Origin: a virus
Taxonomy: Duplodnaviria > Caudoviricetes
Direction: 5' to 3' (one strand)
DNA length: 62,391 bases
IMG/VR virus record: IMGVR_UViG_3300046004_001609
Location: 1-62,391 of that record
The notes under the pieces are model-generated. The model was not told the origin of the DNA. It saw only the letters and a program-made list of their open reading frames with translations, and searched no databases. The first letter of the stretch is position 1. Each line of letters starts with the position of its first letter. This document shows, one piece after another, positions 24,928-51,078 of this stretch. Both the position numbers and the translations under genes were made by a program.

Positions 24928-25842
24928 ATGGTATCTTTAATTCAGCTTTTAAAAGAAATAATTATTAATGAAGGTGGCAATGTATTTAAAAATACAGAGT
25001 ACGACACTCAAGATATACTATTAGCAAATATTGAACCCACAATTAAAAAATTTGTAGATGATTTAGGTAAATTATTTCCAAATAAAAGATCTACATTTTC
25101 TGAATTAACAAGTAAAAGTAATTGGTTAGGTTCAACTGGAAATAAACCACAATCAGGCGACGTAGATATAGCTTATTCATCAGAACATTTTTTTAAAAAT
25201 AAACAAGCCGATGTTGAAGGTTGGGGAATAGATAGAAACGAATATACCCAATTATACGAAAAAAGTAAAAAGGCGGCTCGCTCAGCAACTGATGATCAAA
25301 TTCAATTAAAATCATTAATTCAATTAATTGTTAAAAAAATTAATGCTAGTGGAGGAGATTTATATGCTAGCGATAAAGCATCAGGAGCAGGGTCTATACA
25401 TTTTTCTTATCCTCAATATGCTACTTCAGGAGAAAAATTAGATTCTAGATCCCAATTAGACATGGATATTGGAGATATGGATTGGTTAAAATTTAGATAT
25501 AATTCTGAATTACCAAAAGATGATCCAAATATTAAAGGTTTACATAGAGGGCAATTAATGTTAGCTATGTTTGCAGCTTTAGGATATACATTTAAAAGTG
25601 GTAGAGGATTTGTTCGTAAAGAAACAGGTGAAACTATTGCTGATAAACCTAAAGAAGCATTAGAAGTATTTAATAAAGAATATAATCCAAAACAATCATT
25701 AACTATGGATGTAGTTAACAATTATGTTAAATTAATGAGTTATATTAAAACTAATTTAAAACCTGAAGACCAAACTAAAACATTAGATATGTTTAAAGAG
25801 GCTGTAAGAAGAGCAGGAGCATATGTTCCTGACAATATTTAA
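24928..25842 (+). CDS. Pol-beta-superfamily nucleotidyltransferase-like protein
   Basis: LGSTG...SGDVDIA plus a third Asp (QLD); ATG 24928 preferred; leader ends IINE. Confidence 0.7.
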   Translation: MVSLIQLLKEIIINEGGNVFKNTEYDTQDILLANIEPTIKKFVDDLGKLFPNKRSTFSELTSKSNWLGSTGNKPQSGDVDIAYSSEHFFKNKQADVEGWGIDRNEYTQLYEKSKKAARSATDDQIQLKSLIQLIVKKINASGGDLYASDKASGAGSIHFSYPQYATSGEKLDSRSQLDMDIGDMDWLKFRYNSELPKDDPNIKGLHRGQLMLAMFAALGYTFKSGRGFVRKETGETIADKPKEALEVFNKEYNPKQSLTMDVVNNYVKLMSYIKTNLKPEDQTKTLDMFKEAVRRAGAYVPDNI

Positions 25843-25847
25843 TTACT

Positions 25848-28211
25848 ATGAGTGGAGCAGCAGGCGGATCACGTATAAATAAAGAGGATTTAAAAACAAC
25901 AATCCGTGACTATAGAGATAACATCTTAAAACCATTAGGACTAGATAAATCTTATAATATCACTGGTGTACGTTCTAGACCTGAAAAAGATATATTTGGG
26001 GATATAGACATTGTTGTATCGTTTCCTGAAGGTGATAAAAAAGAACTTAAGCAACAATTTGCTAGTTTCTTAACACAAAACGATAAAGTTCCAGTTATTC
26101 CGTCTAAAAATAAAAAATACTTTATACATGGTAATATTGTTTCTACATTATATCCTATAGCAAATAAAGAAGGAGAATATGTTCAAATTGACAATATAGT
26201 AACAGTTACTAAAGAAGAAGGTAAATTTGCTTTTCAAATGTTAGATTTACCCGCCCAAGAACAAACATTAGCTATAGGTTTAGTTAAAACAATATTTACT
26301 GAATTAGATGAAAAACAAGTAGAAAATTTATTTAATGATTTAGGTATTGCAAGTTCTGAAAAACCAGGTGAAGGTGAAGAATATGATTTTAATTTAAACC
26401 CAGCAGAATTAACTTTAAGGATTGTTCCTGTAGGTAAAAATGAGGGTAAACAAATATGGAAGTCAAATAGCTTTGAAGATGTTAAAAAAATATTACTATC
26501 ATTAGGTATTAATATTGAAAAAGATAAATTTGAAGATATTGTATCTAAAATTAAAAAATTTAAAAATAGAAGATCTATAGATCGCCTTAAAGGAATGTTT
26601 GCTAAAAATATACGTGTTGGCGATGCTGAAAAAGAAATTGAAAAAGGTATTAAAAAACAACAAGCATTAGATACAGTAGCTTCTTTAGAGGAAAAATATA
26701 ACCCATTAATAATGGGATTAATTAAACCATTTATTTTAGAAGATATTAATACACAACCTACTATAGCTATATTTCCAGGTAAATTTAAACCACCACATAA
26801 AGATCATTTAGCTCGTATACAAGCAGCGGCAGCCGATGCTGATGAAGTATATGTATTAGTTTCTCCAAAATCCTCAGAAGAAAAACCAAACCAAAAAACT
26901 ATAACTGCTCAACAAAGTGTAGCATTATTTGATTTATATCGTAAAAAAGGATTAATACCTAGTAATGTTAAAATATACATATCTGATAATTTACCTTTTA
27001 AAGGAGATAATGATGAACAACTATCATTTAATTCCCCAGTAAAATCAGCATATGAAATAATGGATAAAAAGGTTGGACCAAATTATATAGCTGTATTTGG
27101 AAAAGAAGAAGATTTAAAAAGATTTGGAAAAGTACCTAAAAACACAGTTGTTAAAAATTATGATGGCTCAGCAGGAAATTTGAGCGCTACAGATTTAAGA
27201 ATTGCTTTAAAAAATGATCAAGATGTTTCTCAATTTCTTCCTAAAGATATAGATACATCTGATATTTTAAAAGAACACTGTGGATGTGATGATTCATTAC
27301 CAACTACATTAAAGGATGCAATGTTATCATTGACTACATATATGATAGAAAATGATATGAATGTATTACCTTTACCTAAAATTAAAATAATAGACAACGA
27401 TTCTGAAAACGCTAATGGTATATTTGGTAAAACAGCATATTATAATCCAAATGAGTGTTCAATAACGTTATTTACATTGAACAGACATCCAAAAGATGTA
27501 TTGCGTTCATATTCTCACGAAATGATTCATCGTATTCAAGATAATGAAGGTAGATTAAAAAATATTAATACTACTAACACAAATGAAGATGATGAGTTAC
27601 TTGAATTAGAAAAAGAAGCTTATTTAAACGGAAATATTACCTTTAGAAATTGGGAAGATAATTTAAAAAATAATATAAATGAATGGATTGTTGATATCCC
27701 AAAATATAATTACACTCAAAAGCTTTCAAATAAAATTTTTTCTCAACTTTATGAATTAAAAGTAAATGAAATAACTCTTAATCCGAACAATGCTGTTGAA
27801 ATATATGGTGATTTAAATAATGGAGATTTTACTGTGGGGGAACATGATTATAATTATAGAATAATAAAATTGGATAAAAATCCATATAGTAGTAATTCAT
27901 TTTATAGTATTGATTTTCATGAAATTGGAAATAAAAATCCCAATCCTTCTTTACCAACAAAAAATGCTAGAGAAAATTATATAAAAATATTATCAACAAT
28001 ATATAAAATTATATTAGATTTTACTAAAGAAGAAAAACCAGAATATATAGGAATATCAAGTTTAGATGAAAGTGGATACGGAAATATTTACAATAACTTA
28101 ACCAAAACAAATAAACTTCCAGGGTATTCAAGAAAAGATGCAGGTTTAAATTTTACATCCAAATCAGGAGAAAAAGGAAAATTTATAGTACTAAAAAGAA
28201 CAGATGTATAA
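25848..28211 (+). CDS. Multidomain protein: NTase-like, HIGH-type cytidylyltransferase-like, HExxH zincin and C-terminal domain
   Basis: FGDIDIV...VQID; FPGKFKPPHKDH...SATDLR; SHEMIH...EKEAY. Confidence 0.75.
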   Translation: MSGAAGGSRINKEDLKTTIRDYRDNILKPLGLDKSYNITGVRSRPEKDIFGDIDIVVSFPEGDKKELKQQFASFLTQNDKVPVIPSKNKKYFIHGNIVSTLYPIANKEGEYVQIDNIVTVTKEEGKFAFQMLDLPAQEQTLAIGLVKTIFTELDEKQVENLFNDLGIASSEKPGEGEEYDFNLNPAELTLRIVPVGKNEGKQIWKSNSFEDVKKILLSLGINIEKDKFEDIVSKIKKFKNRRSIDRLKGMFAKNIRVGDAEKEIEKGIKKQQALDTVASLEEKYNPLIMGLIKPFILEDINTQPTIAIFPGKFKPPHKDHLARIQAAAADADEVYVLVSPKSSEEKPNQKTITAQQSVALFDLYRKKGLIPSNVKIYISDNLPFKGDNDEQLSFNSPVKSAYEIMDKKVGPNYIAVFGKEEDLKRFGKVPKNTVVKNYDGSAGNLSATDLRIALKNDQDVSQFLPKDIDTSDILKEHCGCDDSLPTTLKDAMLSLTTYMIENDMNVLPLPKIKIIDNDSENANGIFGKTAYYNPNECSITLFTLNRHPKDVLRSYSHEMIHRIQDNEGRLKNINTTNTNEDDELLELEKEAYLNGNITFRNWEDNLKNNINEWIVDIPKYNYTQKLSNKIFSQLYELKVNEITLNPNNAVEIYGDLNNGDFTVGEHDYNYRIIKLDKNPYSSNSFYSIDFHEIGNKNPNPSLPTKNARENYIKILSTIYKIILDFTKEEKPEYIGISSLDESGYGNIYNNLTKTNKLPGYSRKDAGLNFTSKSGEKGKFIVLKRTDV

Positions 28212-28731
28212 ATTAACAGATATATATCGACAAATTAAAGAAGAAGAAGCACTTCCAACACAACAATACAAAATATATTGTGACATGGATGGTGTATTAT
28301 GTGACTTTGATAGACAATTTGAACAATATGCTAGAATAAGTCCTAAAGCATTTGAATCTAAATTTGGAACAGATAAGTTTTGGGAATTAATAGATAAAAT
28401 AGGTTACATATTTTGGTCTAAAATACCTTGGATGTCAGATGGTAAAAGTTTATGGACATATATTAGTAAATACAAACCCGATTTATTATCAGCTCCATCA
28501 CAAAAGGCATCATCACGCTATGGAAAACGTTTATGGGTAAGTGAAAACATACCAGGAGCTAAATTAATATTAGCTGACAGAGAAAAAAAACAAAATTATT
28601 CAAAGAAAAATTCAATACTTATTGATGATCGCCCTGACACCATTAGTGAATGGAATAGTAGGGGAGGAATTGGTATATTATTTACATCAACAGAACAAAC
28701 AATTAATGATTTGAAAAAATTGGGCTTATGA
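28204..28731 (+). CDS. HAD-family 5'(3')-nucleotidase (NT5C-like)
   Basis: IYCDMDGVLCDF and LIDDR motifs. Confidence 0.88.
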   Translation: MYKLTDIYRQIKEEEALPTQQYKIYCDMDGVLCDFDRQFEQYARISPKAFESKFGTDKFWELIDKIGYIFWSKIPWMSDGKSLWTYISKYKPDLLSAPSQKASSRYGKRLWVSENIPGAKLILADREKKQNYSKKNSILIDDRPDTISEWNSRGGIGILFTSTEQTINDLKKLGL

Positions 28732-29315: not shown

Positions 29316-29317
29316 CT

Positions 29318-29842
29318 ATGATTTACAAATACAAATTAGTAGAACAAGAAATGGATGGAGATAATGCAATGCAAAAAGCTTCATATGACTTAGTTCTTAC
29401 TCCAACTACCTTATCTGTTGAAGAAGTAGTTAAAGCATTAGAAAATATAGATAATTACGGAGCATATATATCTAACTTAAGAAACTCAGCTACTGATGTA
29501 AATAAAGCTGTTGAAGCACATTTTGGACCTAGTCAACCTTGGGCTAAAAAAGCAAAAGAAAAAGAAAATGGTAAACCATTCCCAATTAAAACAAAACAAG
29601 CACAAGATGATTTTATTAAAACATTAAAATCAAGACCCAGTTTATTAAACTGGACTATCCAAGGAGAAGTATTACATTTCCCAACAAGTAAAAATCCATC
29701 TAAACAAGTAACTAAAAATATCATTTACACAGTTATGAATAATGCTAAAATCGATTATACTATAGATGATAAAGTAGCGACAAGTGAAGATTCATTACGC
29801 GAAGCAATTAAAGAAATCATTAGAAAAAACATTAAAAAATAA
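29318..29842 (+). CDS. Hypothetical protein
   Basis: N-terminal YKLVE; C-terminal LREAIKEIIRK. Confidence 0.8.
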   Translation: MIYKYKLVEQEMDGDNAMQKASYDLVLTPTTLSVEEVVKALENIDNYGAYISNLRNSATDVNKAVEAHFGPSQPWAKKAKEKENGKPFPIKTKQAQDDFIKTLKSRPSLLNWTIQGEVLHFPTSKNPSKQVTKNIIYTVMNNAKIDYTIDDKVATSEDSLREAIKEIIRKNIKK

Positions 29843-29843
29843 T

Positions 29844-30413: not shown

Positions 30414-30414
30414 T

Positions 30415-31032: not shown

Positions 31033-31061
31033 AAATATAATATTTATAATAAAACATTAAA

Positions 31062-31496
31062 ATGACTAATTCATTCGAAAATATGCAAAAATTGGCTTTT
31101 GGTAAAGTACTTATCAAAGAGTCAATGGAAAATACAAAAATGTCTAAATCTGCTTTAAAAGCACACATCCGTGAAATGATTTTAGATGAAGCTAAAAAGA
31201 AAAAAGACAAACCCGAAAATGTAGCTCCACAAGAAGACGTAGATGTTGATCTTAATATGGGTGATGAACAATTACCAGCTGAACCATCGGGTGAAGAATC
31301 AGCAATAAATACAGTACCTACAGCAACTAGTGATATAGGTGATATCGACCCAACAGTAAAATCTATACAGGATTCATTGCAAAAAGCGTTTGCTCAAGCT
31401 AAAACATTAGGTGACGAAAAATTAATGAACCAAATAGGTAATACTATTACAATGCTTGTACGCACTCAAGTATTGGGTCAGCAAGGTATGCAATAA
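31062..31496 (+). CDS. Hypothetical acidic protein with scaffold-like peptide
   Basis: FENMQKLA and LKAHIREMILDE motifs. Confidence 0.8.
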   Translation: MTNSFENMQKLAFGKVLIKESMENTKMSKSALKAHIREMILDEAKKKKDKPENVAPQEDVDVDLNMGDEQLPAEPSGEESAINTVPTATSDIGDIDPTVKSIQDSLQKAFAQAKTLGDEKLMNQIGNTITMLVRTQVLGQQGMQ

Positions 31497-31535
31497 ATAA
31501 ATTAACAGTTATAAACCAATAAAAACAAAAACAAA

Positions 31536-31709: not shown

Positions 31710-31714
31710 AAAAT

Positions 31715-32191
31715 ATGGCATCACTTACCCCACGAGAATTGGAATTAAAAAACCAACTTTATAGTCAATATAAACAAAGTAAAGAAAAGTTTATAAAAGA
31801 TTATGGTGGGGAAGCTGAAGCTGTTATGACTGGTAGAGCAATTAAATTAGCAAAGAATATGTCTGAAAAAGAAAGTAAACAAAAAATTAAAGAGATGATT
31901 AAGCAAGCCTTAAAGAAATCTCCTATTGAAGAAATCAATTCAGCTGAATATGTTCAAACACGTAAACCTGTAGCTCCAATTGAAGATAAAGAAAAAAATC
32001 CTGAAGACGTAATTATGATGGATGTTCCATTATTAATTCGTATGTTGGAATATGCTAGAGAAGATGCTAAAACAGATATGGATTTACATTTTGCAGCAGA
32101 AAACTTAATTGCGTTATGTAAAAAAGGTGTAACATTAACTATGGATGATTATGATACAATAATCACCCCTGACGAAGCTAAAAATGACTAA
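31715..32191 (+). CDS. Hypothetical protein
   Basis: 158-aa ORF; internal KIKEMIKQAL motif. Confidence 0.8.
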   Translation: MASLTPRELELKNQLYSQYKQSKEKFIKDYGGEAEAVMTGRAIKLAKNMSEKESKQKIKEMIKQALKKSPIEEINSAEYVQTRKPVAPIEDKEKNPEDVIMMDVPLLIRMLEYAREDAKTDMDLHFAAENLIALCKKGVTLTMDDYDTIITPDEAKND

Positions 32192-32711
32192 AAACGAATT
32201 AAGAGATAGAATTAAAAGTATAGTTAAAAAAGTATACTCAACTAAATCATCGGATTCAACTGATAAAGTGGATTTAGATTCACCAGAAGTAATATCATTA
32301 GATACAGCTCGTTTTCCAGTATTAGTTAAATTCCCAACATTACTTGACACTATAGTAAAATTACTAACAGATCAATATGATTTGTTTATTAAAGACATTG
32401 AATGGGTAGCACCACGCCCAACTACATTTCGTATTATATTAGCAAATGATCAAGTATTTTATTTGATTTATACTGATAGAACATGGATTGGTAAAGTAGA
32501 AGGCAAAAAATATTACTTATTAAATTTAAGTGAAGAACAAAACTGTGTAGAATCAATAGCTAGAATTTTAGCATATGGTGTTAGAATTGAGAAAACAGAA
32601 GAAGGAGCACCAGTTGATACCTCAGCAGACGCGCCCGTTGATACATCAATAGCACCGGAAACACCAATCGATGAAGTTCCCCCAACAGAAGAAACACCCC
32701 CAACAGCATAA
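32184..32711 (+). CDS. Hypothetical protein with tag and acidic tail
   Basis: Starts MTKNELRDRIKSIVKK; APVDTS twice. Confidence 0.8.
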   Translation: MTKNELRDRIKSIVKKVYSTKSSDSTDKVDLDSPEVISLDTARFPVLVKFPTLLDTIVKLLTDQYDLFIKDIEWVAPRPTTFRIILANDQVFYLIYTDRTWIGKVEGKKYYLLNLSEEQNCVESIARILAYGVRIEKTEEGAPVDTSADAPVDTSIAPETPIDEVPPTEETPPTA

Positions 32712-33540: not shown

Positions 33541-34254
33541 ATGAAACACGCAGATCTTATAAAACGATTAATCAAAGAGGCATTATCTAAGCCGCTTAAA
33601 GAAGATACATGCAATTGTGGTTGTCATTCATGTGAAAATGTAGGTAATAAGGGTCCAGTACTTAACGAAAGTTTAGGTGCTCGTATATTAATGACCGAAA
33701 ATATGCAATACCATGTTAAAAATAAATTAGCAATTACTGAAAATACATTCAGATATGGTTCGCAAGCATTTTTAGATTTATGGGCTGAAGCGCGTTATTT
33801 ATATTCTCGCAATGCTATTCATTTAAATGATGATGATAAAGCAATTATATTAGAAACGAATTTAGGTGAATATGGAATGTTTGAAGGTAAAAAAGTAGCC
33901 TTAGACATACCTATGTTAGAAGATGATGCATTAGCAGCAGACGAAGAAAAAATTGCTGACGAACCTATATCAGAAGATAAAAAAAAGAATCCACCATTAA
34001 ATAAACCAAAACGTGGTGGATCTAAGAAATTTTATGTGTATATAAGAGACAAAGGTAAAATTAAAAAAGTTAGCTTTGGTGATACATCAGGATTATCTGC
34101 AAAAATAAATAACCCACAAGCACGTCAAGCATTTGCAAAACGTCATGACTGTGCTAACAAAAAGGATAAAACAAAAGCATCATATTGGAGCTGTCGCTTA
34201 CCTAGATATGCTAAATTATTAGGAATTAAATCAACATTTAGTGGATATTGGTAA
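33541..34254 (+). CDS. Hypothetical protein with basic C-terminal domain
   Basis: KKVSFGD...AFAKRHDC...YWSCR; N-terminal tag. Confidence 0.8.
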   Translation: MKHADLIKRLIKEALSKPLKEDTCNCGCHSCENVGNKGPVLNESLGARILMTENMQYHVKNKLAITENTFRYGSQAFLDLWAEARYLYSRNAIHLNDDDKAIILETNLGEYGMFEGKKVALDIPMLEDDALAADEEKIADEPISEDKKKNPPLNKPKRGGSKKFYVYIRDKGKIKKVSFGDTSGLSAKINNPQARQAFAKRHDCANKKDKTKASYWSCRLPRYAKLLGIKSTFSGYW

Positions 34255-34625
34255 TGGATAAACTTAGAAAATTAGTTAGAGAAGAAATACTTAAAGCATT
34301 AAGTGAAGGCTCTGAAGAAAAATTGTATAAAATTGAAGGATTACTTGTTTCAGATAATAACAAGAAAACACAATCTCAATTATTATCAGATATCCGTGCG
34401 ATAACTGGTGTTACTACAATTGATACTAATGAATATATACCTCGCTTACCCAAAGAGAACCGTTCATATAATAGATTAATGGTTAAAATAGATCCATATC
34501 CTTATTTAAAAAATGGCGAATTTAATATAGAAACACTTAATCAAGTTATTAATAACATTAATAATATAGTTGGTGTAGTTACATTTAAAGTTAAAAATCC
34601 ACAATTGATTAATATTGGGATATAG
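34254..34625 (+). CDS. Hypothetical protein with N-terminal tag
   Basis: Starts MDKLRKLVREEILKALSE; ATG overlaps the previous stop. Confidence 0.8.
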   Translation: MDKLRKLVREEILKALSEGSEEKLYKIEGLLVSDNNKKTQSQLLSDIRAITGVTTIDTNEYIPRLPKENRSYNRLMVKIDPYPYLKNGEFNIETLNQVINNINNIVGVVTFKVKNPQLINIGI

Positions 34626-35118: not shown

Positions 35119-37920
35119 ATGGAAAACACGTACAAATTCATAACACACGTAATAGGAAATTTATTCCCACTTAACGAATACTCAGATGGTGAGATGAAAA
35201 GGTTAATGGATAAGTTTAAAGAGGAAGCTGATGACTTAAACATTAAAATTTCAGACGAACAACTTAAAAAATATATTGAACGTTTTGATCAATTAAAAAA
35301 TTCACCTAAAATTGAGGAAAAAGATTTACGTAGATGGCCTTTATCTAAATTAATTAAATTAGTATCTTCATCTGAAGGAGCAGATTCTGAAGAAGAAGAA
35401 GGTCCAGATGTAATATATAGTGAAAACGGGTATACTGTTTATAGTGGTGGAAATGAAGAATTATGTCAAAGACATAGAAATGATGTTCCATGGTGTATAA
35501 CTAGAGGTTCATTTGGAAACTATAGATACAGTGGAGGTAAAGGTTACCCATCATTTTACTTAATAAGTAATACTAATCTGCCAGAAAGTAATAAATTAAG
35601 TTTTGTTGCTATTCAAGTTAGAGATGAAGAGGAAAATCGTAAATATGTTTGGACCCCTAGAGATAACAGCCCAAATGAATCTTCACCAATGGGATGGAGT
35701 ACATTAACTTCAGATATTCCTTGGTTAAATGAAATTCCTAATATCAAAAATATACTTAAAAATGTTCCTTTATCATCAAAAGAAAAAGCAACTCAGGTAT
35801 ATAGTAAATCTGGAAGTGAAATATCTATACGTCAATGGGTAAGTATGCCCTTTAACGAAAAAAAGCAATATTTAGTAGTTAGAAAAAAAAGCAAAATATT
35901 TAATGATATTACAAATGAAGAATTTGTAGCTAATTACTTACCTAACTATCCTCAATTAGCGGCATTCGCAGCCGTTACTCCTGGTGTAGTAGATCCAATG
36001 TTATTACTCAAAAATTTAGATAAATTTTCAGCTAATGATAGAAAATCTATAACTGCTAATTTACATAATTTAGTAGATATAAAAGAATTACAAAAAGAAA
36101 CATTACCATTTGACGTTAAAAAATTATTAACTATTTTAAACAAGTGGGATCTTAAAAATGACGAAAGAATATATGTAACCAAAAATGGTGAAGCTATAGT
36201 TAAGTTAACATTTGGATCAGACATTAATGTAGGAGTTTTTACAGCAGAAGATGATTATCCAAGTATTAAATTAAATAAAAGAACAGCTAAATTTTTATTA
36301 GATTATCCTAAAATAGATGAAATTCCATTTAATAATTTAATTAAATTAGCTAGTGCAGATATAATAGATAAAGATTTTATTACTAAAGTTCTCCAAAAAG
36401 CAGAACAAGACCCAAATTCAGCCATTATAGTTAAAGATACTGAAAATGGTAAAATTTTATTAGATTCAAATTCATTTACTTCTTATAAAATTGAAGGAGA
36501 TAAAATTTCCCCAATCCTATTTAGTAGTGATGAAGTACAAAATATATTAGCATCAGAAACTGAAAATAGTGGCTTTCAAAAATCAGCAGTAGATTTAGTA
36601 TTTGCAGAAGAAAATATACCCGACCAAATAGATAAAGATTCATTTCTTAGTATATTAAAGAATACTCCATATGATAAAAGAACAAAAGATGGTATTGTAA
36701 TAATTCCGTTAGAAAATGGTATAGGGGCATTTAATACAGATGCAGCTCAAGGCAATCCATTTCAATTTTTATATGGTGTTGATCGTCCATGGAATGAATA
36801 TATTAACTATACTCCGAGATTAACAGCAGACATTTGGAGAGAATATTTTGCTTATTTAAGAAATAAAAATGCATCATACACCGATGAACAATTAATGAGA
36901 GTTCTTAATAATTTACCTTCTCAAAGAAAAGCATTTGTAGAAGCATTACCACCAATGGTTGCTGGTAGTATGTACAAACCAGCAATTTATGAAAATGAAG
37001 CTTATCTTGTTAATACTAGAAATCCAAGAGATAGTAAGAGAATATCGGGTACTGGCAAAATAGTTAAAGGAGCATTATCATCATCTCAAGCAAGTAGAAT
37101 ATTAGGAACAACAGTTCAAGCACCAGCAGGACAAGCTCAAGCAGCACCTGCAGCAGCACAACCTGGAGTACCTAGAAGAGGAAGACCAGCAGGAGTAGCA
37201 GGTGCACCTAGACCAGTAGCTGCACCAGCAGCAGGTGGAACACCAACATTTGAATTAATGGTTGGAAGAGGTTTAGAAACAGCATTTAATGGATTACCTA
37301 GACCAGTTAGAAATAGATTAGTAATAGCTACACAAGAAACAGGTTTATCTAGAGGAGCTTCTCGCCGTAATAATCAATTAGGAAATAGAGGTAGAGTTGT
37401 GAGTACTTGGAATTCTGGACCTAGTAGCATATATTTTATTAGATTAACTAATGGTACTATGATAGCATCAATTAATATACAACCAGGAAATGGCAATTAT
37501 ATACTTATTCCAGGCCAAGAATACGTTAGATTAAATTCACCAACTGAATTACTATCAGCATTACAAGCAAGAGAGCTAGCTGAAGTATTTATTGCTGAAT
37601 TTATGTCTTCAAATCCAACAATGATTGATGAAACTAAAAAAGTAGTAGATTTTTATAATAGAAAAATTAAAAACAAACCAAATATGAAATTAAATGAATT
37701 AAAAAATCTTATTAAAAATGAGATTAGAGCAGTTTTAGCTGAAAACGCACCCGCAAAGGAGAAAGAAAAAGTAACTACTCCAACTAAAACTCCAAGCAAA
37801 AACCCATTACATCCAAATCCTAATATTAATCCAAAGACTAAACCAAAAGCACAAAAAGAAGGTATGTCTAAAGGAATAGCTGACATTGTAAAAAAATATA
37901 AATCATTAAAAAAGAAATAA
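35119..37920 (+). CDS. Large modular hypothetical protein (933 aa)
   Basis: WCITR...YRY..FYLI segment; Ala/Pro linker with RRGRP AT-hook; C-terminal tag-like segment. Confidence 0.85.
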   Translation: MENTYKFITHVIGNLFPLNEYSDGEMKRLMDKFKEEADDLNIKISDEQLKKYIERFDQLKNSPKIEEKDLRRWPLSKLIKLVSSSEGADSEEEEGPDVIYSENGYTVYSGGNEELCQRHRNDVPWCITRGSFGNYRYSGGKGYPSFYLISNTNLPESNKLSFVAIQVRDEEENRKYVWTPRDNSPNESSPMGWSTLTSDIPWLNEIPNIKNILKNVPLSSKEKATQVYSKSGSEISIRQWVSMPFNEKKQYLVVRKKSKIFNDITNEEFVANYLPNYPQLAAFAAVTPGVVDPMLLLKNLDKFSANDRKSITANLHNLVDIKELQKETLPFDVKKLLTILNKWDLKNDERIYVTKNGEAIVKLTFGSDINVGVFTAEDDYPSIKLNKRTAKFLLDYPKIDEIPFNNLIKLASADIIDKDFITKVLQKAEQDPNSAIIVKDTENGKILLDSNSFTSYKIEGDKISPILFSSDEVQNILASETENSGFQKSAVDLVFAEENIPDQIDKDSFLSILKNTPYDKRTKDGIVIIPLENGIGAFNTDAAQGNPFQFLYGVDRPWNEYINYTPRLTADIWREYFAYLRNKNASYTDEQLMRVLNNLPSQRKAFVEALPPMVAGSMYKPAIYENEAYLVNTRNPRDSKRISGTGKIVKGALSSSQASRILGTTVQAPAGQAQAAPAAAQPGVPRRGRPAGVAGAPRPVAAPAAGGTPTFELMVGRGLETAFNGLPRPVRNRLVIATQETGLSRGASRRNNQLGNRGRVVSTWNSGPSSIYFIRLTNGTMIASINIQPGNGNYILIPGQEYVRLNSPTELLSALQARELAEVFIAEFMSSNPTMIDETKKVVDFYNRKIKNKPNMKLNELKNLIKNEIRAVLAENAPAKEKEKVTTPTKTPSKNPLHPNPNINPKTKPKAQKEGMSKGIADIVKKYKSLKKK

Positions 37921-38977: not shown

Positions 38978-39415
38978 ATGAATAACTTTGATTTAAGAAA
39001 ATATTTAACTGAAGGTAAATTATATGAGGCAGCTATGTCTTGTCCTTTACCCACTCAAAATTTAGAACTTAACACTAAAAATAGAGACTCATCCATTAAA
39101 GCAGATTATATTAAATATGGTCCTTTAAATGTTGATGAACCTGGAGATTTCTGGGAAGAATTAGCAGGACATTGGGATACAACGGTTGAAGCTGCTCAAC
39201 AATCTTTATGTGGTAATTGTGCTGCATTTGATATATCTCCAAGAATGGAAGATTGTATGCCTGGATCATTATCAGATGATGATGGTAAACTAGGATATTG
39301 TTGGATGCATAGTTTTAAATGCCATTCAGCTCGTACTTGTAGAACATGGGCTAAAGGAGGTCCTATAGTTAAAGATGTTATATCTTATGATTGGCAAGAA
39401 CGTAAAGGAGAATGA
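38978..39415 (+). CDS. Cys-rich putative metal/Fe-S-binding protein
   Basis: CGNCAAF...C...GYC...C...CRTW; tag MNNFDLRKYLTE. Confidence 0.75.
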   Translation: MNNFDLRKYLTEGKLYEAAMSCPLPTQNLELNTKNRDSSIKADYIKYGPLNVDEPGDFWEELAGHWDTTVEAAQQSLCGNCAAFDISPRMEDCMPGSLSDDDGKLGYCWMHSFKCHSARTCRTWAKGGPIVKDVISYDWQERKGE

Positions 39416-39558
39416 TTAAACTAATAGATATATTAAAAGAATTAGTAACCAAAACAGAAATCATTTGTGATAACTGTGGGTGGAGATGGAAAATTGTAGA
39501 TGGTGGAGATGATTTATACATTTGTCACAAATGTGGACATGACAATACCCCAGAATGA
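39412..39558 (+). CDS. Small zinc-ribbon protein (48 aa), absent from the ORF track
   Basis: MIKLIDILKE...CDNCGW...CHKCG; overlaps both neighbours by 4 nt. Confidence 0.8.
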   Translation: MIKLIDILKELVTKTEIICDNCGWRWKIVDGGDDLYICHKCGHDNTPE

Positions 39559-39815
39559 CCCCATACACCGACATAGAAGTTACTGATAAATACATTATTC
39601 GTGAATTTGATGAAAACATCGATCCAATCGAATTAATGTGGCATCGTGATGATGAAAGTCGTACATTAGAAATAATTGGTGAAACAGATTGGAAAATACA
39701 GTTAGATAATAAATTACCGATCTTACTAGAAAGCCATATATTTATACCAAAACACGAGTATCATAGAGTAATTAAAGGTACAAAAACATTAAAATTAAAA
39801 ATATACAAAAAATGA
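39555..39815 (+). CDS. Cupin-fold protein
   Basis: WHRD...FIPKHEYHRVIKG. Confidence 0.75.
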   Translation: MTPYTDIEVTDKYIIREFDENIDPIELMWHRDDESRTLEIIGETDWKIQLDNKLPILLESHIFIPKHEYHRVIKGTKTLKLKIYKK

Positions 39816-40432
39816 GTAAATTAAGACAACTAATCCGCGAATCAATTACTAATTATATTAGTGAAATAAATGAGGCGGGAGATATTTCAGCTTGTGAGTC
39901 AAAAATATTAAAAACTCGAGAAGCTATTGAACTTCGTGAAAAGAAAATAAGTAAGGAGGGCATCGATGAAGCTTATCATGATATGCTTGATGAAAACAAA
40001 TTAAAAGAATTTGCTAAAGAAATTAAAATATTAGAGAAAAGTTTAGCTAAACATGAAAAAATGTTAGAAAAACTTAAATCAAAAGCTAATAAAGGAGAAA
40101 AAGTAGAAGATACTGAAGAAAAAGAAATCGTTGATGAAGTTTCAATTGATGAAAACGCAGAAGATGGTCCATATAAAGTAGATCCAAAAGATAGAAAATA
40201 TTTATCAATGCCAGGAATGGAAAATTTTGATGAAGATGAAAGATTTGATGCTGATGGCACTCCAAACGAAGAAGGAATGTATGATGCAGAAGGAAATCGT
40301 ATTTCATTTGCAGATATTGATAAAGCAATGTATGATGGAGAAGCAGAATATATGAATGAATCATTTTTACACATGCAAAAATTAGCTGGTGTAATTACTG
40401 AAGCACAATACAAAGATAAGTTAAAGAAATAA
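39812..40432 (+). CDS. Hypothetical protein with N- and C-terminal tags
   Basis: MSKLRQLIRESI...; ...ESFLHMQKLAGVITE. Confidence 0.8.
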   Translation: MSKLRQLIRESITNYISEINEAGDISACESKILKTREAIELREKKISKEGIDEAYHDMLDENKLKEFAKEIKILEKSLAKHEKMLEKLKSKANKGEKVEDTEEKEIVDEVSIDENAEDGPYKVDPKDRKYLSMPGMENFDEDERFDADGTPNEEGMYDAEGNRISFADIDKAMYDGEAEYMNESFLHMQKLAGVITEAQYKDKLKK

Positions 40433-40521: not shown

Positions 40522-40524
40522 AAT

Positions 40525-42416: not shown

Positions 42417-42719
42417 ATGAAAAACTTAAAAGAACTTGTACGTAAACAGTTAAAGGAAATGGCTCGCCCAGCTCAATCTTATACAATTGGAGACCTAACA
42501 AAAGCTGACACATTAATCAGTTCATATGCTCAAACTGAAAGATTTAAATGGATAGGTAATACAATTCAAATAATAAAAGATGCAGGTGAAACTGGTATTT
42601 TACTTATGGATTTATTAGATAAATTATCTGAAGAATATAGACAAAATAAAACATCACAAGAAATAAATCCACCACTAGGACGTTTAGTAGATAGTGGAAT
42701 ATTAAGAAGAGGTAGATAA
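42417..42719 (+). CDS. Hypothetical protein, tag plus winged-helix-like domain
   Basis: Starts MKNLKELVRKQLKE; similar to a segment of 43330. Confidence 0.75.
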   Translation: MKNLKELVRKQLKEMARPAQSYTIGDLTKADTLISSYAQTERFKWIGNTIQIIKDAGETGILLMDLLDKLSEEYRQNKTSQEINPPLGRLVDSGILRRGR

Positions 42720-42729
42720 ATTAGAGGGC

Positions 42730-42758
42730 TTGGATTACCAAGCCTTCATTTGTACATT
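42730..42758 (+). promoter_or_regulatory. TTGG-N19-TACATT promoter
   Basis: Exact motif; its TTG is the track's spurious start codon. Confidence 0.7.
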
Positions 42759-42774
42759 TACAAAAACAAAAGTT

Positions 42775-43305: not shown

Positions 43306-43329
43306 TATTTATAATAAAACTCTACATAA

Positions 43330-44202: not shown

Positions 44203-44203
44203 T

Positions 44204-46357: not shown

Positions 46358-46366
46358 AAATAAAAA

Positions 46367-48232
46367 ATGGCAAATACAGACATATTTTCAAGACTAAAAA
46401 GATTATTTTCAACAGATGTAATTATCCGAAATGAGGGTGGAAACGACATTAAAGTAATTGATGTTAACTCTATTCAAAATAGTGGCCAATATCAAACTAA
46501 CTCATTAGGTGATCGATATAGTAGAATTTATTCTCAAAACGCTACTTCACTTTATGGACAACAATTAAATGTCAATTATCAGTACTTAAGAGCACAATTA
46601 TACTCTGATTATGACGTAATGGATACTGATGCTATTATAGCTTCAGCATTAGATATCATCGCTGATGAATGTTCATTAAAGAATGAAATGGGTGAAGTAT
46701 TACAAATTCGTAGTTCAGATGAAGATATACAAAAAATATTATACAACTTATTCTATGATGTTTTAAATATAGAATTTAACATGTGGTCATGGGTTAGACA
46801 AATGTGTAAATATGGAGATTTTTTCTTGAAATTAGATATTTCAGAAAAATTTGGAGTATATAATGTTATTCCTTACACTGCATATCATATCATGCGTCAA
46901 GAAAATTATGATATAAAAAATCCACAATCAATAAGATTCAGATTTAGTCCAGATGGTTATGTTGGTGGTACAGGACAATTTACAGTTCCTAATCAACAAT
47001 TTGACGAAACAAATGGTATATATTTTGATAATTTTGAGATGGCTCATTTTAGATTATTAACGGATGTTAACTACCTTCCCTATGGTCGTTCATATCTTGA
47101 ACCAGCTCGTAAATTATTTAAACAATATACATTGATGGAAGATGCTATGTTAATTCATAGAATTTCCCGTGCACCTGAAAAACGTGTATTTTATATAAAT
47201 GTTGGTGCTATTCCTCCTAATGAAGTAGAAAACTTTATGAAGAAGACAATCACTACAATGAAAAAAACTCCATATATGGATCATCAAACTGGTGAATATA
47301 ATTTAAAATACAACATGCAAAACATGTTAGAAGATTTTTACATCCCAGTTCGTGGTAATGACACATCAACTAAAATTGAAACAACCAAAGGTTTAGAGTA
47401 TGATGGTATTAAGGATGTTGAATATTTAAGAGATAAGTTATTTGCTGCCCTTAAAGTACCTAAAGCATTTATGGGTTACGAAAAAGATTTAACTGGTAAA
47501 GCAACATTAGCAGCTGAAGATATTCGTTTTGCTCGTACAATTGACAGAATTCAACGTATTATATTATCTGAATTAAATAAAATAGCATTAGTACATTTAT
47601 ATACTCAAGGCTTTATTGGTGAATCATTAACTAATTTTGAAATTTCATTAACAACTCCATCAATTATTTACGATCAAGAACGTATTGCGTTAATGAAAGA
47701 AAAAGTCGATTTAGCTAAAAATATTATGGAAGCCCAATTATTACCAACTGATTGGATATATCACAATGTGTTTCACTTTAGTGAAGACCAATTTGATGAA
47801 TATAGAGATTTAATATTACAAGATGCTAAACGCAAATTCAGATTGGGTCAAGTAACTGAAGAAGGTAATGATCCATTAGAAACAGGTAAATCTTATGGTA
47901 CACCACATGATTTAGCTTCATTATATGGTAAAGGTAGAACAATATCTGACCCAGGAAATGTACCAGCTGGATATGAAGATGATACTACTTTAGGACGTCC
48001 TGAAAAAAAAGTGTCAAATATTAATACACAAGATAATGTATTTGGTAAAGATAGATTAGGTAGAGATTCAATGAAAAACGATGATCAACAAAAATATAAT
48101 GGTAAAATTAACGAGAATGCTCAAATTACATATCTAAAAAATAAACAATTCTTAACTGAATTGGATAAAAAATTAGTATTTCAAACTGATAAAGCTAAAG
48201 AATCATTGTTAGATGAAAATCGACTTTCATAG
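46367..48232 (+). CDS. Portal protein (gp20-like)
   Basis: MEDAMLIHRISRAPEKRVFYINVG; EDFYIP; LFAALKVPK. Confidence 0.95.
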   Translation: MANTDIFSRLKRLFSTDVIIRNEGGNDIKVIDVNSIQNSGQYQTNSLGDRYSRIYSQNATSLYGQQLNVNYQYLRAQLYSDYDVMDTDAIIASALDIIADECSLKNEMGEVLQIRSSDEDIQKILYNLFYDVLNIEFNMWSWVRQMCKYGDFFLKLDISEKFGVYNVIPYTAYHIMRQENYDIKNPQSIRFRFSPDGYVGGTGQFTVPNQQFDETNGIYFDNFEMAHFRLLTDVNYLPYGRSYLEPARKLFKQYTLMEDAMLIHRISRAPEKRVFYINVGAIPPNEVENFMKKTITTMKKTPYMDHQTGEYNLKYNMQNMLEDFYIPVRGNDTSTKIETTKGLEYDGIKDVEYLRDKLFAALKVPKAFMGYEKDLTGKATLAAEDIRFARTIDRIQRIILSELNKIALVHLYTQGFIGESLTNFEISLTTPSIIYDQERIALMKEKVDLAKNIMEAQLLPTDWIYHNVFHFSEDQFDEYRDLILQDAKRKFRLGQVTEEGNDPLETGKSYGTPHDLASLYGKGRTISDPGNVPAGYEDDTTLGRPEKKVSNINTQDNVFGKDRLGRDSMKNDDQQKYNGKINENAQITYLKNKQFLTELDKKLVFQTDKAKESLLDENRLS

Positions 48233-48316
48233 TCGATAAAAATAATTCTACAATATATAAAAATTTTGCGTTTAAATCCAAAAATTAACATATGTATAAT
48301 AAAAATAACTATTTAA

Positions 48317-49174
48317 ATGCTAATAAAACATTCTAAGTACAAAAACACGGGCATTTTATTCGAATTGTTAGTAAGACAGATTACAGCAGATACATTATCT
48401 GGTAAAAATTCTGAGGCAACTAATATATTAAAGAAACACTTTAGCAAAACAGAATTAGGCCGTGAATACAAATTATATGATAGTTTACTTAAACGCACTA
48501 ATTTGTCAGAAGGTAAAGCAGAACTTATAATTAACACAGTATTAGAAAGTGCTAAGCAATTAAATCGTACGTCGCTTAAAAAACAAAAATACAATTTAAT
48601 TAATGAGATTAAAAAACATTACAATTTAGAAGAATTTTTTAAAACCAAACTTCCAAATTATAAATCTCATGCCGCAATTTATACGTTAATTGAGTCATAT
48701 AGTGATGGTAAAAACGTATCTCATGAACAAACTATAACTAATAAATTAGTATTATTAGAACATATATCTGCATCTCCTAAAGTAACAAAATCAACAGATA
48801 CATTTATGAATGAATTTGCTAAGGAAGATAAAGATACTCGAATATTAACTTATAAAATATTATTAGAAAAATTCAACTCTAAATACTCAGATTTTAGTAA
48901 TAATAAAAAATCCATTCTTAAAGAATTTATTAATAGTGTAGATAACACAAATAAATTAAAAGAATTTTACAATTCTAAAATTAATGAAATTAAAAGTGAA
49001 CTTGTTACATTAAATAAAAAAACCAAAAACCAAATTACTAAAATTAAAATAAATGAAGTATCTACACTTTTGGTTAAATTAGATAAAAATGATAAAGTAA
49101 CTAACGATCAATTAGTAAATTTACTTCAACATTGTGATTTATTAGAAGAACTACATTTAATTAATGGAAAATAA
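48317..49174 (+). CDS. Hypothetical helical head-region protein
   Basis: Starts KHSKYKNTGILFELL; between portal and protease; ATATGTAT at 48290. Confidence 0.85.
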   Translation: MLIKHSKYKNTGILFELLVRQITADTLSGKNSEATNILKKHFSKTELGREYKLYDSLLKRTNLSEGKAELIINTVLESAKQLNRTSLKKQKYNLINEIKKHYNLEEFFKTKLPNYKSHAAIYTLIESYSDGKNVSHEQTITNKLVLLEHISASPKVTKSTDTFMNEFAKEDKDTRILTYKILLEKFNSKYSDFSNNKKSILKEFINSVDNTNKLKEFYNSKINEIKSELVTLNKKTKNQITKIKINEVSTLLVKLDKNDKVTNDQLVNLLQHCDLLEELHLINGK

Positions 49175-49916
49175 AGAACCAACAGGATTTGAATTTAGCG
49201 ACCCAAAAACTGACACAGAAACAGGTAAAATTTCTTGGGATGTTAAGTACAAAGCTGATTATGCATTAGTATATAAAAGATTTAAGGAACTTAATAAAGT
49301 ACTTAAGGATTTTACAACATATGATGAAGTTAGAAAAGATCTTAAATTAATGGAAATTAATAAGTGGTTTAATACTTTATACAATACATTTAGAACTCAC
49401 CTCAGAAGAGAATATCCAAACCAATATAAACAACTACAAACAATAGATGAAAATCTAGTTAAAGAACTTGTTCGTAAAGCATTAGAAGAAGAAAGTGCTA
49501 CTGGAGCGGGTGCAGGTGCTGGTTCATTTACACCAGGTGAAGGAGCTCAATATGCTACTAAATATGCATATAATCCAAACAAAAAAGCTAAAGGCGCTGA
49601 AAATATTTATTACTATAAGTTAGGTTTCAAACCAGTTAATACTAAAAATTTAGATGAAAATGAAGAATCATCACAATCATATGTTGATTCATTAAATTTG
49701 TCAGATCCAGCTTTAAAACAATTCGTAGACACTAGAATAACAGATTTTGATAAAATAGAAGATAAGATAAATACTTTACTTCCATTACTAAAAAAGGCTA
49801 AAACTGAAACAATGGAGTATTACAAAATATCTCCTGATTTTAAAATTAAATACGGTACGGATTTAGCAGTAGATTACTTAGACGACTTAATAACATTATT
49901 TAAAGACAAAAAATAA
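49164..49916 (+). CDS. Hypothetical head-region protein
   Basis: Coupled ORF with internal LVKELVRKALEE. Confidence 0.8.
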   Translation: MENKEPTGFEFSDPKTDTETGKISWDVKYKADYALVYKRFKELNKVLKDFTTYDEVRKDLKLMEINKWFNTLYNTFRTHLRREYPNQYKQLQTIDENLVKELVRKALEEESATGAGAGAGSFTPGEGAQYATKYAYNPNKKAKGAENIYYYKLGFKPVNTKNLDENEESSQSYVDSLNLSDPALKQFVDTRITDFDKIEDKINTLLPLLKKAKTETMEYYKISPDFKIKYGTDLAVDYLDDLITLFKDKK

Positions 49917-49917
49917 A

Positions 49918-51078
49918 ATGGCAACATTACAAGAACACTACAACCAAATTAACGAAGGTAAAGGAAACAAAGCTCAGTTTTTAAAACAAGCTAGAGAATT
50001 ATTCCCTCAACACTTCAATCAATATTCTGACTTTAATACAGTTACAAACGTATTAAAATCTAAACAAATCATCAGTGAATCAAAAACTAATGTTGTCACT
50101 AAAGGATTTGATATCTACGATTGGAAAAAAATATTAGCTGAAGAAGTTAAAGCAGAAGAAAAAACAACATCTAAAGGTGTTATTGATACTCAAAAACATG
50201 CTTACGATAACGTAGACATGAAAAATGCTGATAATATTAACTTCAATGAAATCATGAAAGGATTTTATGCTGAGTTAAAAGATCCAAAAAACCACGATAA
50301 AACTGGTGATGAAATTAAAGCTATGGTTGTTAAAAACTTAGGTAAAGATATTTTACACTATACTAAAGATGGTATGTTTGGTGAAAAGGGATTAGGATTT
50401 ACTACTGAAGCTCCAGGTTTAGGTACTCCAAAAGAACCTAAAGGTAAATTTAAATCGTCAGGATATGGTGATTTAGATACTGAAGTAAAAATCAAAGAAC
50501 TAAAATCAAATGTTCAAGACTCATTAGGTGATAAAGAAGCAGAAACTTCAATGCCTAAAAAAGTTAAAGAAATGTCTGTAACTCCTCAAAATTCAGCTGG
50601 CGTTAAAAAAATGAAAATGCCTGGTGCTGAAAAAACGATGAAGTTGCAAGAAGGTGTAATTAATGAAAACGAAGCAGTTTATGATCAAATAGCCGATTTA
50701 GAACATGATTTGATGTTAGCTAAAAATGATGAACATAAAGCTGAAATCGAAGCAAAAATCAAATCATTAGAAGCAGAATTATTAAATGAAAATGATGAAG
50801 ATGATGATTTATTTAATACTAGAAAAGAAGCAGAAAAATTAGCAATGGATTTATCTCGTTTTAAGAAAAACGAAATTTATTATGTTGAAGAAGAAAATGG
50901 TAAATATAAAGCTGTAGAAAGTATGTATGACGAACCACCAAGAGGTGTATATTTTCAAAATGGAAATAGAAAAGGAGGCTCATACATGCCATCACCAGGA
51001 AATGACCCAAGAAATGTAGATGAATCTAAATTACGTTCTGTAATTAAATCAATGATTAAAGAATCATTAAATAAATAA
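49918..51078 (+). CDS. Hypothetical prohead-core-like protein
   Basis: Many [IL]xE sites; C-terminal ESKLRSVIKSMIKE. Confidence 0.8.
   Translation: MATLQEHYNQINEGKGNKAQFLKQARELFPQHFNQYSDFNTVTNVLKSKQIISESKTNVVTKGFDIYDWKKILAEEVKAEEKTTSKGVIDTQKHAYDNVDMKNADNINFNEIMKGFYAELKDPKNHDKTGDEIKAMVVKNLGKDILHYTKDGMFGEKGLGFTTEAPGLGTPKEPKGKFKSSGYGDLDTEVKIKELKSNVQDSLGDKEAETSMPKKVKEMSVTPQNSAGVKKMKMPGAEKTMKLQEGVINENEAVYDQIADLEHDLMLAKNDEHKAEIEAKIKSLEAELLNENDEDDDLFNTRKEAEKLAMDLSRFKKNEIYYVEEENGKYKAVESMYDEPPRGVYFQNGNRKGGSYMPSPGNDPRNVDESKLRSVIKSMIKESLNK

Follow-up and report, generated by a model that had tools for sequence, protein, structure and literature searches.

In the 62,391-base contig that forms the whole of IMG/VR record IMGVR_UViG_3300046004_001609 (the window, with positions counted from its first base and genes named by their start), thirteen genes begin with related short peptides, here called leaders or tags. 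We consider these leaders to be, probably, prohead-protease propeptides of the kind known as the capsid-targeting sequence (CTS) of phage T4, greatly multiplied in one clade of phages. The motif is strongly biased to protein N-termini, it is portable between unrelated proteins, it is conserved in the manner of a cleavage site, it is also present in proteins of the head module, and the matching type of protease is encoded in that module. By its sequence the phage is a distant T4-like phage of Bacteroidota, belonging to the 'far-T4' clade. Its major capsid protein is 57.8% identical to the counterpart in Flavobacterium phage vB_FspM_immuto (immuto), with remoter kinship to Microcystis phage Mel-JY01, Rhodothermus phage RM378 and T4-type phages. 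The credible genes all lie on the + strand, and the G+C content is 27–39% in 2-kb windows.

The thirteen N-terminal carriers (2280, 9969, 24928, 28204, 32184, 33541, 34254, 34625, 38978, 39412, 39812, 42417 and 43330) begin with an amphipathic helix of the form L-x-x-L-I-[KR]-E-x-I (motif A) or N-F-D-L-[KR]-K-[FY]-L-x-E (motif B). Five further genes hold a copy inside or at the C-terminal end: 29318 at residue 160, 31062 at residue 32, 35119 at residue 861, 49164 at residue 97 and 49918 at residue 372. A first-pass annotation of this DNA had listed such peptides as a candidate capsid-cargo addressing system; every peptide that it listed is present at its gene, the tags do mostly end in [IL]-x-E, and the copy in 49164 is an addition to its list.

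To measure the N-terminal bias we used the expression L..[LIVY][LIVY][KR], which begins no later than residue 10 in 10 of the 71 window genes, compared with 0.64 expected from its internal rate (17 per 18,865 positions). A motif-free pair test compared residues 2–21 of the 71 proteins all against all by ungapped BLOSUM62 scoring. The results show 27 pairs with a score of at least 28, as opposed to a mean of 4.85 and a maximum of 9 in 20 shuffles, and 0–5 at four internal offsets. Single linkage of these pairs gives one cluster with 12 of the tagged genes of the first-pass annotation, which also takes in 1166 and 34949 as two weak, apparently chance additions. In leave-one-out scoring, 9 of the 12 tagged genes reach at least 8.8 bits, a level met by 0–7 of 16,369 internal positions, and the scores are weaker (4.2–6.2 bits) for 2280, 28204 and 42417. 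A DNA-level repeat as the source of the tags was rejected: their coding DNA is alike no further than the peptides demand, indicating that the tags are not a DNA repeat, and the DNA upstream differs. An expectation-maximisation motif on residues 2–31 gave a loose amphipathic pattern in 75% of the sequences and was discarded as overfitted.

The leaders fall into distinct classes. The class I consensus is MIKLxDLL[RK]E (also M-I-K-L-x-D-[LI]-[LI]-x-E) and that of class II is MKKSEL[KR]x[YIL]I[KR]EEIxxxL[ST]E, the spacing of class I being shifted by two residues. Motif B, in full M-x-N-F-D-L-[KR]-K-[FY]-L-x-E-N-K-L, provides an alternative leader whose sequence is sharply conserved (window 38978–39013); it is found five times in immuto (record 1803, 103806, 117631, 118632 and 125241).

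We then examined how the leaders are distributed among related phages. A terminase scan of IMG/VR yielded at least 600 relatives, of which 80 loci were retained, and 17 more came from a scan with the 933-residue protein of gene 35119, giving a total of 97 loci and immuto. Open reading frames (ORFs) of the relatives were taken on the + strand from the first ATG, with a length of at least 35 residues and with X-containing ORFs dropped, and start errors may hide or create tags. A profile built from the window finds N-terminal hits in 251 of 1,485 proteins, compared with 5.7 expected. Of these hits, 63 are terminases, which are treated below, and 188 fall into 45 other families; this number is approximate, as the families are single-linkage BLAST clusters and fusion proteins merge some of them. 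Among the 188 tagged non-terminase proteins the first hydrophobic residue stands at position 4 (63 cases) or 6 (80 cases).

The leader is thus found in front of unrelated mature parts, about 45 body families, and on the same body it can be present, absent or swapped for another class. Members of the deoxyribonucleotidase family begin with MYKLTDIYRQIKEEE, with MIKLIDLLNE or without a leader (MYTIYCDMDG). Relatives of 33541, whose body has homologues in immuto and in the phages Melnitz and HTVC008M, are either tagged (e.g. MNLKQLIRETLE) or untagged (MDINTQDCGCNG), and the immuto orthologue of 9969 (record 81525) is tagged like the window gene. The 38978 family carries either motif B (MNNFDLRKYLTE) or the class I leader MIKLLNILNE, indicating that the leader classes are interchangeable. 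In two relatives (L024, L025) a separate, shorter gene starts with the motif that is internal in 49164; in three (L070, L078, L079) the 49918 protein runs on through its C-terminal motif into a 39812-like body; and in others the copy inside 35119 begins a gene of its own. Because internal copies become N-terminal in relatives in which the gene is split, the motif signals that a module begins, regardless of any fusion ahead of it. The claim that the domains behind the tags are unrelated holds in general, with the exception of 42417 and 43330, which are paralogues. The claim of a much larger modular payload stands as to portable modules on unrelated bodies; as to size the repertoire of the window is moderate, with 13 N-terminal tags per 62 kb.

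The T4 system provides a rule with which the leaders can be compared. Passages of PMC9026906 describe the first ten residues of the T4 internal protein IPIII as sufficient for packaging, with residues 4 and 7 needed for targeting and 8 and 10 for processing, and passages of PMC3012670 and PMC5694885 make related statements on T4 capsid targeting. In the T4 record, IPII and IPIII start with MKTYQEFIAE, gp24 with MAKINELLRE/S, Alt with MELITELFDE/D (slashes mark the cut) and gp22 with MLKEQLIAEA, and gp23 is cut after FGSFLTE65, the next residue being A. The window leaders sit at the extreme N-terminus and are 10–20 residues long, as expected of a T4-type CTS. Class I, represented by 55 unique leaders from 22 families, has L/I at residue 4 in 51/55, L/I at residue 7 in 53/55, L/I/V/Y at residue 8 in 55/55 and E at residue 10 in 39/55. 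The leaders MIKLTDILKE, MIKLIDILKE, MSKLRQLIRE, MDKLRKLVRE and MVSLIQLLKE match the IPIII rule at each position. The generic form of the rule, PHI..PHIPHI.E with PHI a hydrophobic residue, starts at residues 2–8 in 8 of the 71 window genes versus 1.63 expected (p 3e-4) and in 17 of 230 immuto ORFs versus 4.58 expected (p 6.5e-6). The likeness to T4 leaders proposed in the first-pass annotation is borne out by this fit to PHI-x-x-PHI-PHI-x-E. A looser expression applied to immuto gave 20 hits versus 17.9 expected and was set aside as uninformative.

In the T4 genome itself we noted that gp61.1 (gene 61.1, NC_000866 18966–19130), an uncharacterised protein of 54 residues, starts with MKTFKEFIKE, near the leaders of the internal proteins; it may be an overlooked CTS-bearing protein.

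Conservation at the junction between leader and body has the form of a protease site. We examined the best 120 of 287 homologues of the PolX-like protein 24928; in 117 of these a leader precedes GGN[VI]F, and the dropped rows are one truncated protein and two with GGSVF. In the 42 unique leaders thus obtained, P1 is Glu in 42/42 and P3 is I/L/V in 42/42, as opposed to nine different residues at P2. Leu occupies residues 4 and 8 in 42/42, and residue 7 is L or I. The untagged immuto orthologue starts with MGGNVF, exactly after the junction Glu, at P1'. An invariant Glu with a free neighbour, placed at the start of the untagged orthologue, favours an [ILV]-x-Glu protease site over a plain helix. 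Several leaders hold two or three successive PHI-x-E sites.

The head module supplies the context that a T4-type leader would need: its protease gene is of the gp21 type and lies beside the genes for the scaffold and the capsid protein. PHROGs assigns the large terminase (44786), the portal (46367), the head maturation protease (51080), the major head protein and PhoH. The head genes run in the order portal, three unknown genes, protease, acidic helical protein and capsid protein, which mirrors T4 genes 20-67-68-21-22-23. The protease keeps the residues aligned with T4 His85 and Ser140, and its N-terminus, MKPLLIE, resembles the gp21 start MNEPQLLIE. The candidate maturation site of the capsid protein (QIVSE/A in immuto) aligns close to T4 LTE65/A with a conserved [IV]-x-E. 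For the acidic helical protein 51884, the label of scaffold rests on position, composition and conservation, since it has no sequence or family match. Its N-terminus is motif-A-like (NRDLLAEAIAD), and the scaffold N-termini of relatives score with the window-trained leader profile.

Of the three unknown genes, 48317 and 49164 have no match in Pfam, PHROGs or NCBIfam, and for 49918 the sole match in these libraries is DUF3173, under the Pfam cut-off. PHI..PHIPHI.E sites counted per protein do not single out the head proteins (scaffold 3 versus 1.18 expected, p 0.12). A complex prediction of the scaffold (24-row alignment) with the tagged 34254 protein (6 rows), run with no controls, scored 0.00 against a mark of 0.32 and has no bearing on binding either way. 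We also observed that repeats of the form L-[DE]-E-L-L-A-E-L-[ED] in the scaffold (window 52100–52450, residues 74–192) are conserved across 24 relatives and fit PHI..PHIPHI.E; they could be sites at which the scaffold is cut to pieces.

Tagged genes share an upstream motif with structural genes. The sequence TATTTATAA occurs in 16 copies in the window, compared with 8.2 expected, and lies 3–30 bases upstream of the structural genes 16364, 20085 and 55638 and likewise of 9969, 33541, 35119 and 43330; the 8-base core TATTTATA(A) also precedes 24928. The core TATTTATA also stands in front of immuto genes, namely those for sheath, tube, tape measure, terminase and portal, together with tagged ones. 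The T4 late promoter is TATAAATA, and the likeness to it, together with the genes that TATTTATA precedes, makes this motif a likely late promoter. The statement that tagged genes follow a late-type motif is in agreement with these data, the motif remaining putative as a promoter. Copies of (A)ATATTTATAA are found at window 9957, 16351, 20061, 31041, 33530, 35107, 43306, 55616 and others; this form, too, is likely a late promoter, a variant of T4 TATAAATA. In immuto the tags concentrate in the structural half of the genome (12/82 ORFs, versus 5/148 in the other half, Fisher p 0.003). The further claim that early genes and the HNH gene are untagged could be followed in part: the HNH gene has no tag, and the window has almost no early genes for comparison.

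As controls we used HTVC008M and Melnitz, which are AT-rich and T4-like and in which a gp21-type protease is also present. Neither shows an excess of the generic pattern (4/203 versus 3.26 expected in HTVC008M, 6/219 versus 3.35 expected in Melnitz), and the window profile has 1 hit in HTVC008M and 0 in Melnitz. The absence of an excess in these phages indicates that the expansion of tags is clade-specific and due neither to composition nor to T4-likeness. The sole tag-like N-termini in the control phages belong to two orthologous proteins of about 340 residues, HTVC008M 100883 and Melnitz 8854, which start with MANFLKQIIKETGNEYA and MDFLKDIAKTAGNEYA; they may be propeptide-bearing head proteins of these phages' own.

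A second peptide, motif C ([MWLF][QRKE].LAG[ILVM], with the wider consensus N-E-x-F-x-R-[MW]-Q-K-L-A-G-[IL]), was found in 56 of 1,564 proteins, compared with 0.8 in shuffles. It ends 21 of 26 scaffold proteins, including that of the window (FARMRELAGLKK), and is also found at one end or the other of small proteins from about 23 further families. In 30 cases the copy falls within the last ~20 residues and in 22 within the first 25. Fourteen proteins, 39812 among them, have motif A in front and motif C behind. Sites include window 40375–40395 (39812), 52834–52858 (scaffold) and 31071–31100, and L029:10338, L032:4055 and L043:8588 in relatives. A full-text literature search for the strings of motifs A and C returned only unrelated malaria papers. 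In other phages, scaffold C-termini bind the shell. If the scaffold tail does so here, motif C may be a second address peptide that mimics it.

From this one can frame a bolder proposal, which we regard as possible but rather doubtful: a two-signal head address code, in which the N-terminal helix (A or B) and motif C, copied from the two ends of the scaffold, would load dozens of unrelated proteins as an injected first-strike payload, the signals being gained, lost and swapped freely. Such a payload would include the PolX-like nucleotidyltransferase, the deoxyribonucleotidase, zinc and iron-sulfur-type domains and winged-helix proteins.

The T4-type propeptide reading, which we prefer, would work as follows. 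A protein expressed late would bear a free N-terminal amphipathic helix of class I, class II or motif B; this helix, resembling the scaffold N-terminus, would let the protein assemble together with the scaffolding core while the shell forms. The gp21-type protease would then cut after [ILV]-x-Glu, once or more within the helix, freeing the mature body inside the head, and this body would exit along with the DNA when the phage infects a cell. Internal copies of the motif (35119, 49164, 49918) would indicate where two modules are cut apart. We infer that the tagged proteins bind to the core, are cleaved, stay in the virion and are ejected.

Several results weigh against this reading. The N-terminus of the large terminase, MSQDL[KR]QIIREEY (window 44786–44830), is conserved and matches the profile strongly in 63 of 84 relatives. 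From residue 11 onward this terminase aligns to T4 gp17 from residue 108 onward, the first ~100 residues of gp17 lacking in the clade; the match is a false positive because its helix aligns with an internal helix of gp17. We rejected the terminase N-terminus as a tag, its helix belonging to the conserved terminase fold, and a profile match alone proves nothing. Among the tagged genes, 9969 sits in the baseplate module and 43330 where a small terminase might be expected, and several tagged bodies are normally cytoplasmic enzymes (the nucleotidase, the PolX-like protein and a P-loop protein in L095). In T4, PHI..PHIPHI.E is found in 12 of 278 ORFs versus 4.7 expected; four of the 12 are known processed head proteins (IPII, IPIII, gp24, Alt), so that the generic pattern is only a moderate, indeed weak, predictor in T4 itself. 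On 277 T4 ORFs the window-trained profile places gp24 at rank 13 and IPII, IPIII and IPI at ranks 176–243. As the profile misses the T4 leaders, the likeness to them is one of pattern and not of homology, which would be expected if the leaders of each phage fit its own core. Over all leaders the first motif Glu is E in 119 of 169 unique sequences and never D, in a set chosen by a profile that favours E. BLASTP gave no alignment of the scaffold with T4 gp22, and Pfam, PHROGs and NCBIfam no match for it. Finally, the literature yielded no virion proteome, N-terminal sequence or expression data for the phage or its relatives, no primary immuto paper with a proteome and no paper on Mel-JY01.

Three other explanations were weighed. 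The helix could be a docking peptide for a hub outside the capsid that gathers late proteins in the cytoplasm, its Glu-rich face serving for binding, with a nucleotide-metabolism or replication complex or a phage chaperonin as the hub. This would suit the nucleotide and DNA enzymes among the bodies (the deoxyribonucleotidase, the PolX-like fold, the P-loop protein of L095), the position of tagged genes among NMN-adenylyltransferase-like and thymidylate-kinase-like genes, the GroEL and GroES encoded by immuto, and the similar helix at the start of the terminase, which is not a head-internal protein. However, the terminase helix is inherited from its fold, the motif is also found in head-module proteins and resembles the scaffold N-terminus, the invariant P1 Glu with a hydrophobic P3 and a free P2 at the junction between tag and body suits a protease site better, and no candidate hub was identified. 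We therefore judge docking to be unlikely. An improbable variant of the propeptide reading grants that the leaders are cleavable and bring their bodies into the prohead core, where these would act as accessory core or scaffold material or be kept inactive until cleavage, to be degraded or expelled with no payload delivered. Folded enzymes and zinc- or cysteine-rich domains are unlikely scaffold material, and T4 proteins with such short leaders (the internal proteins, Alt) are retained and injected. What speaks for the variant is that 39812 resembles a small scaffold, that several leaders have successive PHI-x-E sites, and that 49164 and 49918 correspond in position to the core proteins gp67 and gp68, which T4 degrades according to passages of PMC5694885.

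It is very improbable that the leaders have no common function and are independent amphipathic or coiled-coil N-termini, alike because an AT-rich genome yields proteins rich in K/I/L/E/N and because of selection on the first codons. The genome has a low G+C content of 27–31%, MK- starts are common, and the discarded expectation-maximisation motif was indeed a loose amphipathic pattern. Against this, internal positions, shuffles and the two AT-rich T4-like genomes show no such excess, the first hydrophobic residue stands at position 4 or 6 in 143 of 188 proteins, leader classes swap on one body, and immuto tags avoid the early half of the genome. Coincidence is largely refuted by these controls.

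The features are collected in Table 1, and structure models were available for two of the tagged proteins. In the AlphaFold2 (AF2) model of 24928 (mean pLDDT 83, pTM 0.73), the leader forms a helix at residues 4–14, off the body and of low confidence, with pLDDT <50 at residues 6–19. The best matches of this model in the Protein Data Bank (PDB) by Foldseek are Pol beta and Pol mu (E from 8e-4, probability 0.91–1.0, TM ~0.3–0.38), and the protein has a G-S...D-x-D stretch that we take to be the Pol-beta-type signature. The AF2 model of 43330 has a helix at residues 3–25, a disordered linker, a confident domain at 66–140, an acidic disordered stretch and a C-terminal helical domain. In both models the leader is thus predicted as a separate helix, on a disordered linker in 43330 and placed off the body with low confidence in 24928. 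As to whether 43330 is a small terminase, Foldseek gave weak winged-helix matches only, with a best E of 0.15. Proteins 34254, 39812, 42417 and 43330 have no match in Pfam, PHROGs or NCBIfam. The layout of 39812 (motif A, coiled coil, acidic stretch, motif C) looks like that of a scaffold.

Table 1 Tagged genes, other motif carriers and head-module genes of the window (aa, amino acids).
Position	Strand	Product	Leader or motif copy	Remarks
2280..2702	+	140-aa protein	class II leader MKRSELQSLINECIAEVLAE	leave-one-out weak, 5.0 bits
9969..10334	+	121-aa protein	class II leader MKQNELKDLIKIAVKEAIQEE; second copy at aa 20	just upstream of baseplate genes, behind TATTTATAA
24928..25842	+	PolX-like nucleotidyltransferase	15-aa class I leader MVSLIQLLKEIIINE before GGNVF	assigned from model and Foldseek
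28204..28731	+	5'-3' deoxyribonucleotidase (HAD/NT5C type)	leader MYKLTDIYRQIKE	PHROG 2643, E 8e-25, match from residue 20
29318..29842	+	174-aa protein	C-terminal copy SLREAIKEIIRKNIKK, aa 158-174	15.5 bits
31062..31496	+	144-aa protein	degenerate N-terminal motif C (FENMQKLAFG), then motif A at aa 32, LKAHIREMILDE	
32184..32711	+	175-aa protein	leader MTKNELRDRIKSIVKK	conserved in 20 relatives
33541..34254	+	237-aa Cys-rich protein	leader MKHADLIKRLIKE	behind TATTTATAA motif
34254..34625	+	123-aa protein	class I leader MDKLRKLVREEILKALSE	leave-one-out 21.6 bits
34625..34948	+	107-aa basic DUF5872-like protein, GTG start	class I leader MIKLTDILKE	DUF5872 E 3e-5, under Pfam cut-off
35119..37920	+	933-aa protein	internal leader MKLNELKNLIKNEIRAVLAE, aa 859-875	tail behind leader is a separate tagged gene in relatives
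38978..39415	+	145-aa Cys-rich protein	motif B leader MNNFDLRKYLTE	annotated 'high potential iron-sulfur protein' in other phages
39412..39558	+	48-aa zinc-ribbon protein	class I leader MIKLIDILKE	
39812..40432	+	206-aa acidic coiled-coil protein	N-terminal motif A MSKLRQLIRE; motif C near C-terminus FLHMQKLAGVITE	
42417..42719	+	100-aa protein	leader MKNLKELVRKQLKE	paralogue of 43330 central domain; leave-one-out weak, 6.2 bits
43330..44202	+	290-aa protein	class II leader MKRKDLYKYIRTEIINELTE	two genes upstream of terminase, behind TATTTATAA
44786..46357	+	Large terminase	N-terminus MSQDLKQIIRDEY matching the motif	false positive
46367..48232	+	Portal protein		phrog_213, 6e-62
49164..49916	+	Head-module protein	internal motif LVKELVRKALEEE before SATGAGAG, aa 97-112	
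49918..51078	+	Head-module protein	ends in motif KLRSVIKSMIKESLNK	
51080..51682	+	T4 gp21-type prohead protease		phrog_207, 1e-58; 37% identity to T4 gp21
51884..52861	+	Presumed scaffold		acidic, helical, between protease and capsid gene; named from position, composition and conservation only
52897..54567	+	Major capsid protein, gp23 type		candidate maturation site QLVVE60/T

Some further observations concern the surroundings of these genes. In the nucleotide-handling cluster (24928–28731 and 42730–43305), only the PolX-like protein and the deoxyribonucleotidase carry leaders; its untagged members are a 787-residue protein with an NMN-adenylyltransferase/cytidylyltransferase-like domain and a thymidylate-kinase-like protein. 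The Actinomycetia phage DSL-LC01 (L111 5659–6393), an unrelated phage, encodes a protein homologous to the 38978 body and carrying the annotation high potential iron-sulfur protein; its gene lies directly 5' of three 'capsid maturation protease' genes and the capsid gene. Two paralogous small genes, 55365–55589 (74 residues) and 61967–62176 (69 residues), both starting with MKTLIYFNRPDCPENMGISQLTDD, flank the block 55638–61963; since the block holds a 1351-residue fibre-like protein, they may delimit a host-range cassette that can be exchanged. The left end of the window, which is richer in G+C, has genes for tRNA-Glu(ttc) at 515–587, tRNA-Pro(agg) at 812–897 and tRNA-Gln(ttg) at 2143–2215.

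If the leaders do act as in T4, they would provide a readable list, predictable from sequence, of the proteins that enter the cell with the DNA, for a widespread group of uncultured aquatic Bacteroidota phages (at least 600 terminase relatives in viral contigs, and 287 homologues of one cargo gene in the protein collection). Proteins that may counter host defences or take over the cell early in infection could then be named as candidates without experiment, and it would become clear how a phage extends its injected payload through the transfer of a module of 10–20 residues between genes. Bacteroidota would also gain a natural tag for protein delivery, comparable to the T4 CTS in E. coli, and the scaffold-tail motif would be a second, encapsulin-like addressing principle. 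The cultured relative immuto, a phage of Flavobacterium sp. LMO8, makes the idea directly testable.

The principle itself is already known from the T4 CTS, from giant-phage propeptides and from DarB of phage P1. In the literature, with supplementary tables outside the search, we found no leader repertoire this large or diverse outside the T-even phages, no use of such leaders on enzymes and no scaffold-tail motif. Encapsulin cargo-loading peptides are mostly C-terminal, and phage scaffold C-termini bind the coat. Motif C resembles, by analogy, such a terminal address peptide for the interior of a shell; it differs in standing at either end of its carriers, and its binding to the capsid is putative. 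For phage P1, passages of PMC9024508 describe an N-terminal 30-residue signal of DarB that suffices to bring a reporter into the capsid, a likeness limited by the single protein family, the other type of phage and the lack of a shared motif; removal by a protease is not reported in these passages. In phiKZ, 201phi2-1 and SPN3US, a protease related to gp21 cleaves many of the head proteins behind a Glu, there are paralogues with conserved N-termini, and the propeptides are thought to target the prohead, according to passages of PMC5694885. As described there, the giant-phage propeptides mostly exceed 100 residues and have the motif A/S-x-E, and these phages are not T4-like in scaffold or genome, whereas the leaders here are short and resemble those of T4 in pattern.

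The closest comparison is with the T4 CTS, borne by IPI, IPII and IPIII and, as propeptides cut by gp21, by Alt and gp24. The window leaders, known from sequence alone, have no sequence-level match to those of T4; they are mostly longer (~14–20 residues), with up to three PHI-x-E repeats and at least three classes, some copies are internal or C-terminal, and the carriers are more numerous (13 in 62 kb, ~45 families in the clade) and include enzymes. Both systems nevertheless place a short, portable N-terminal leader on unrelated proteins, with hydrophobic residues at 4, 7 and 8 and Glu at 10 in class I, and both encode a homologous protease in the head module.

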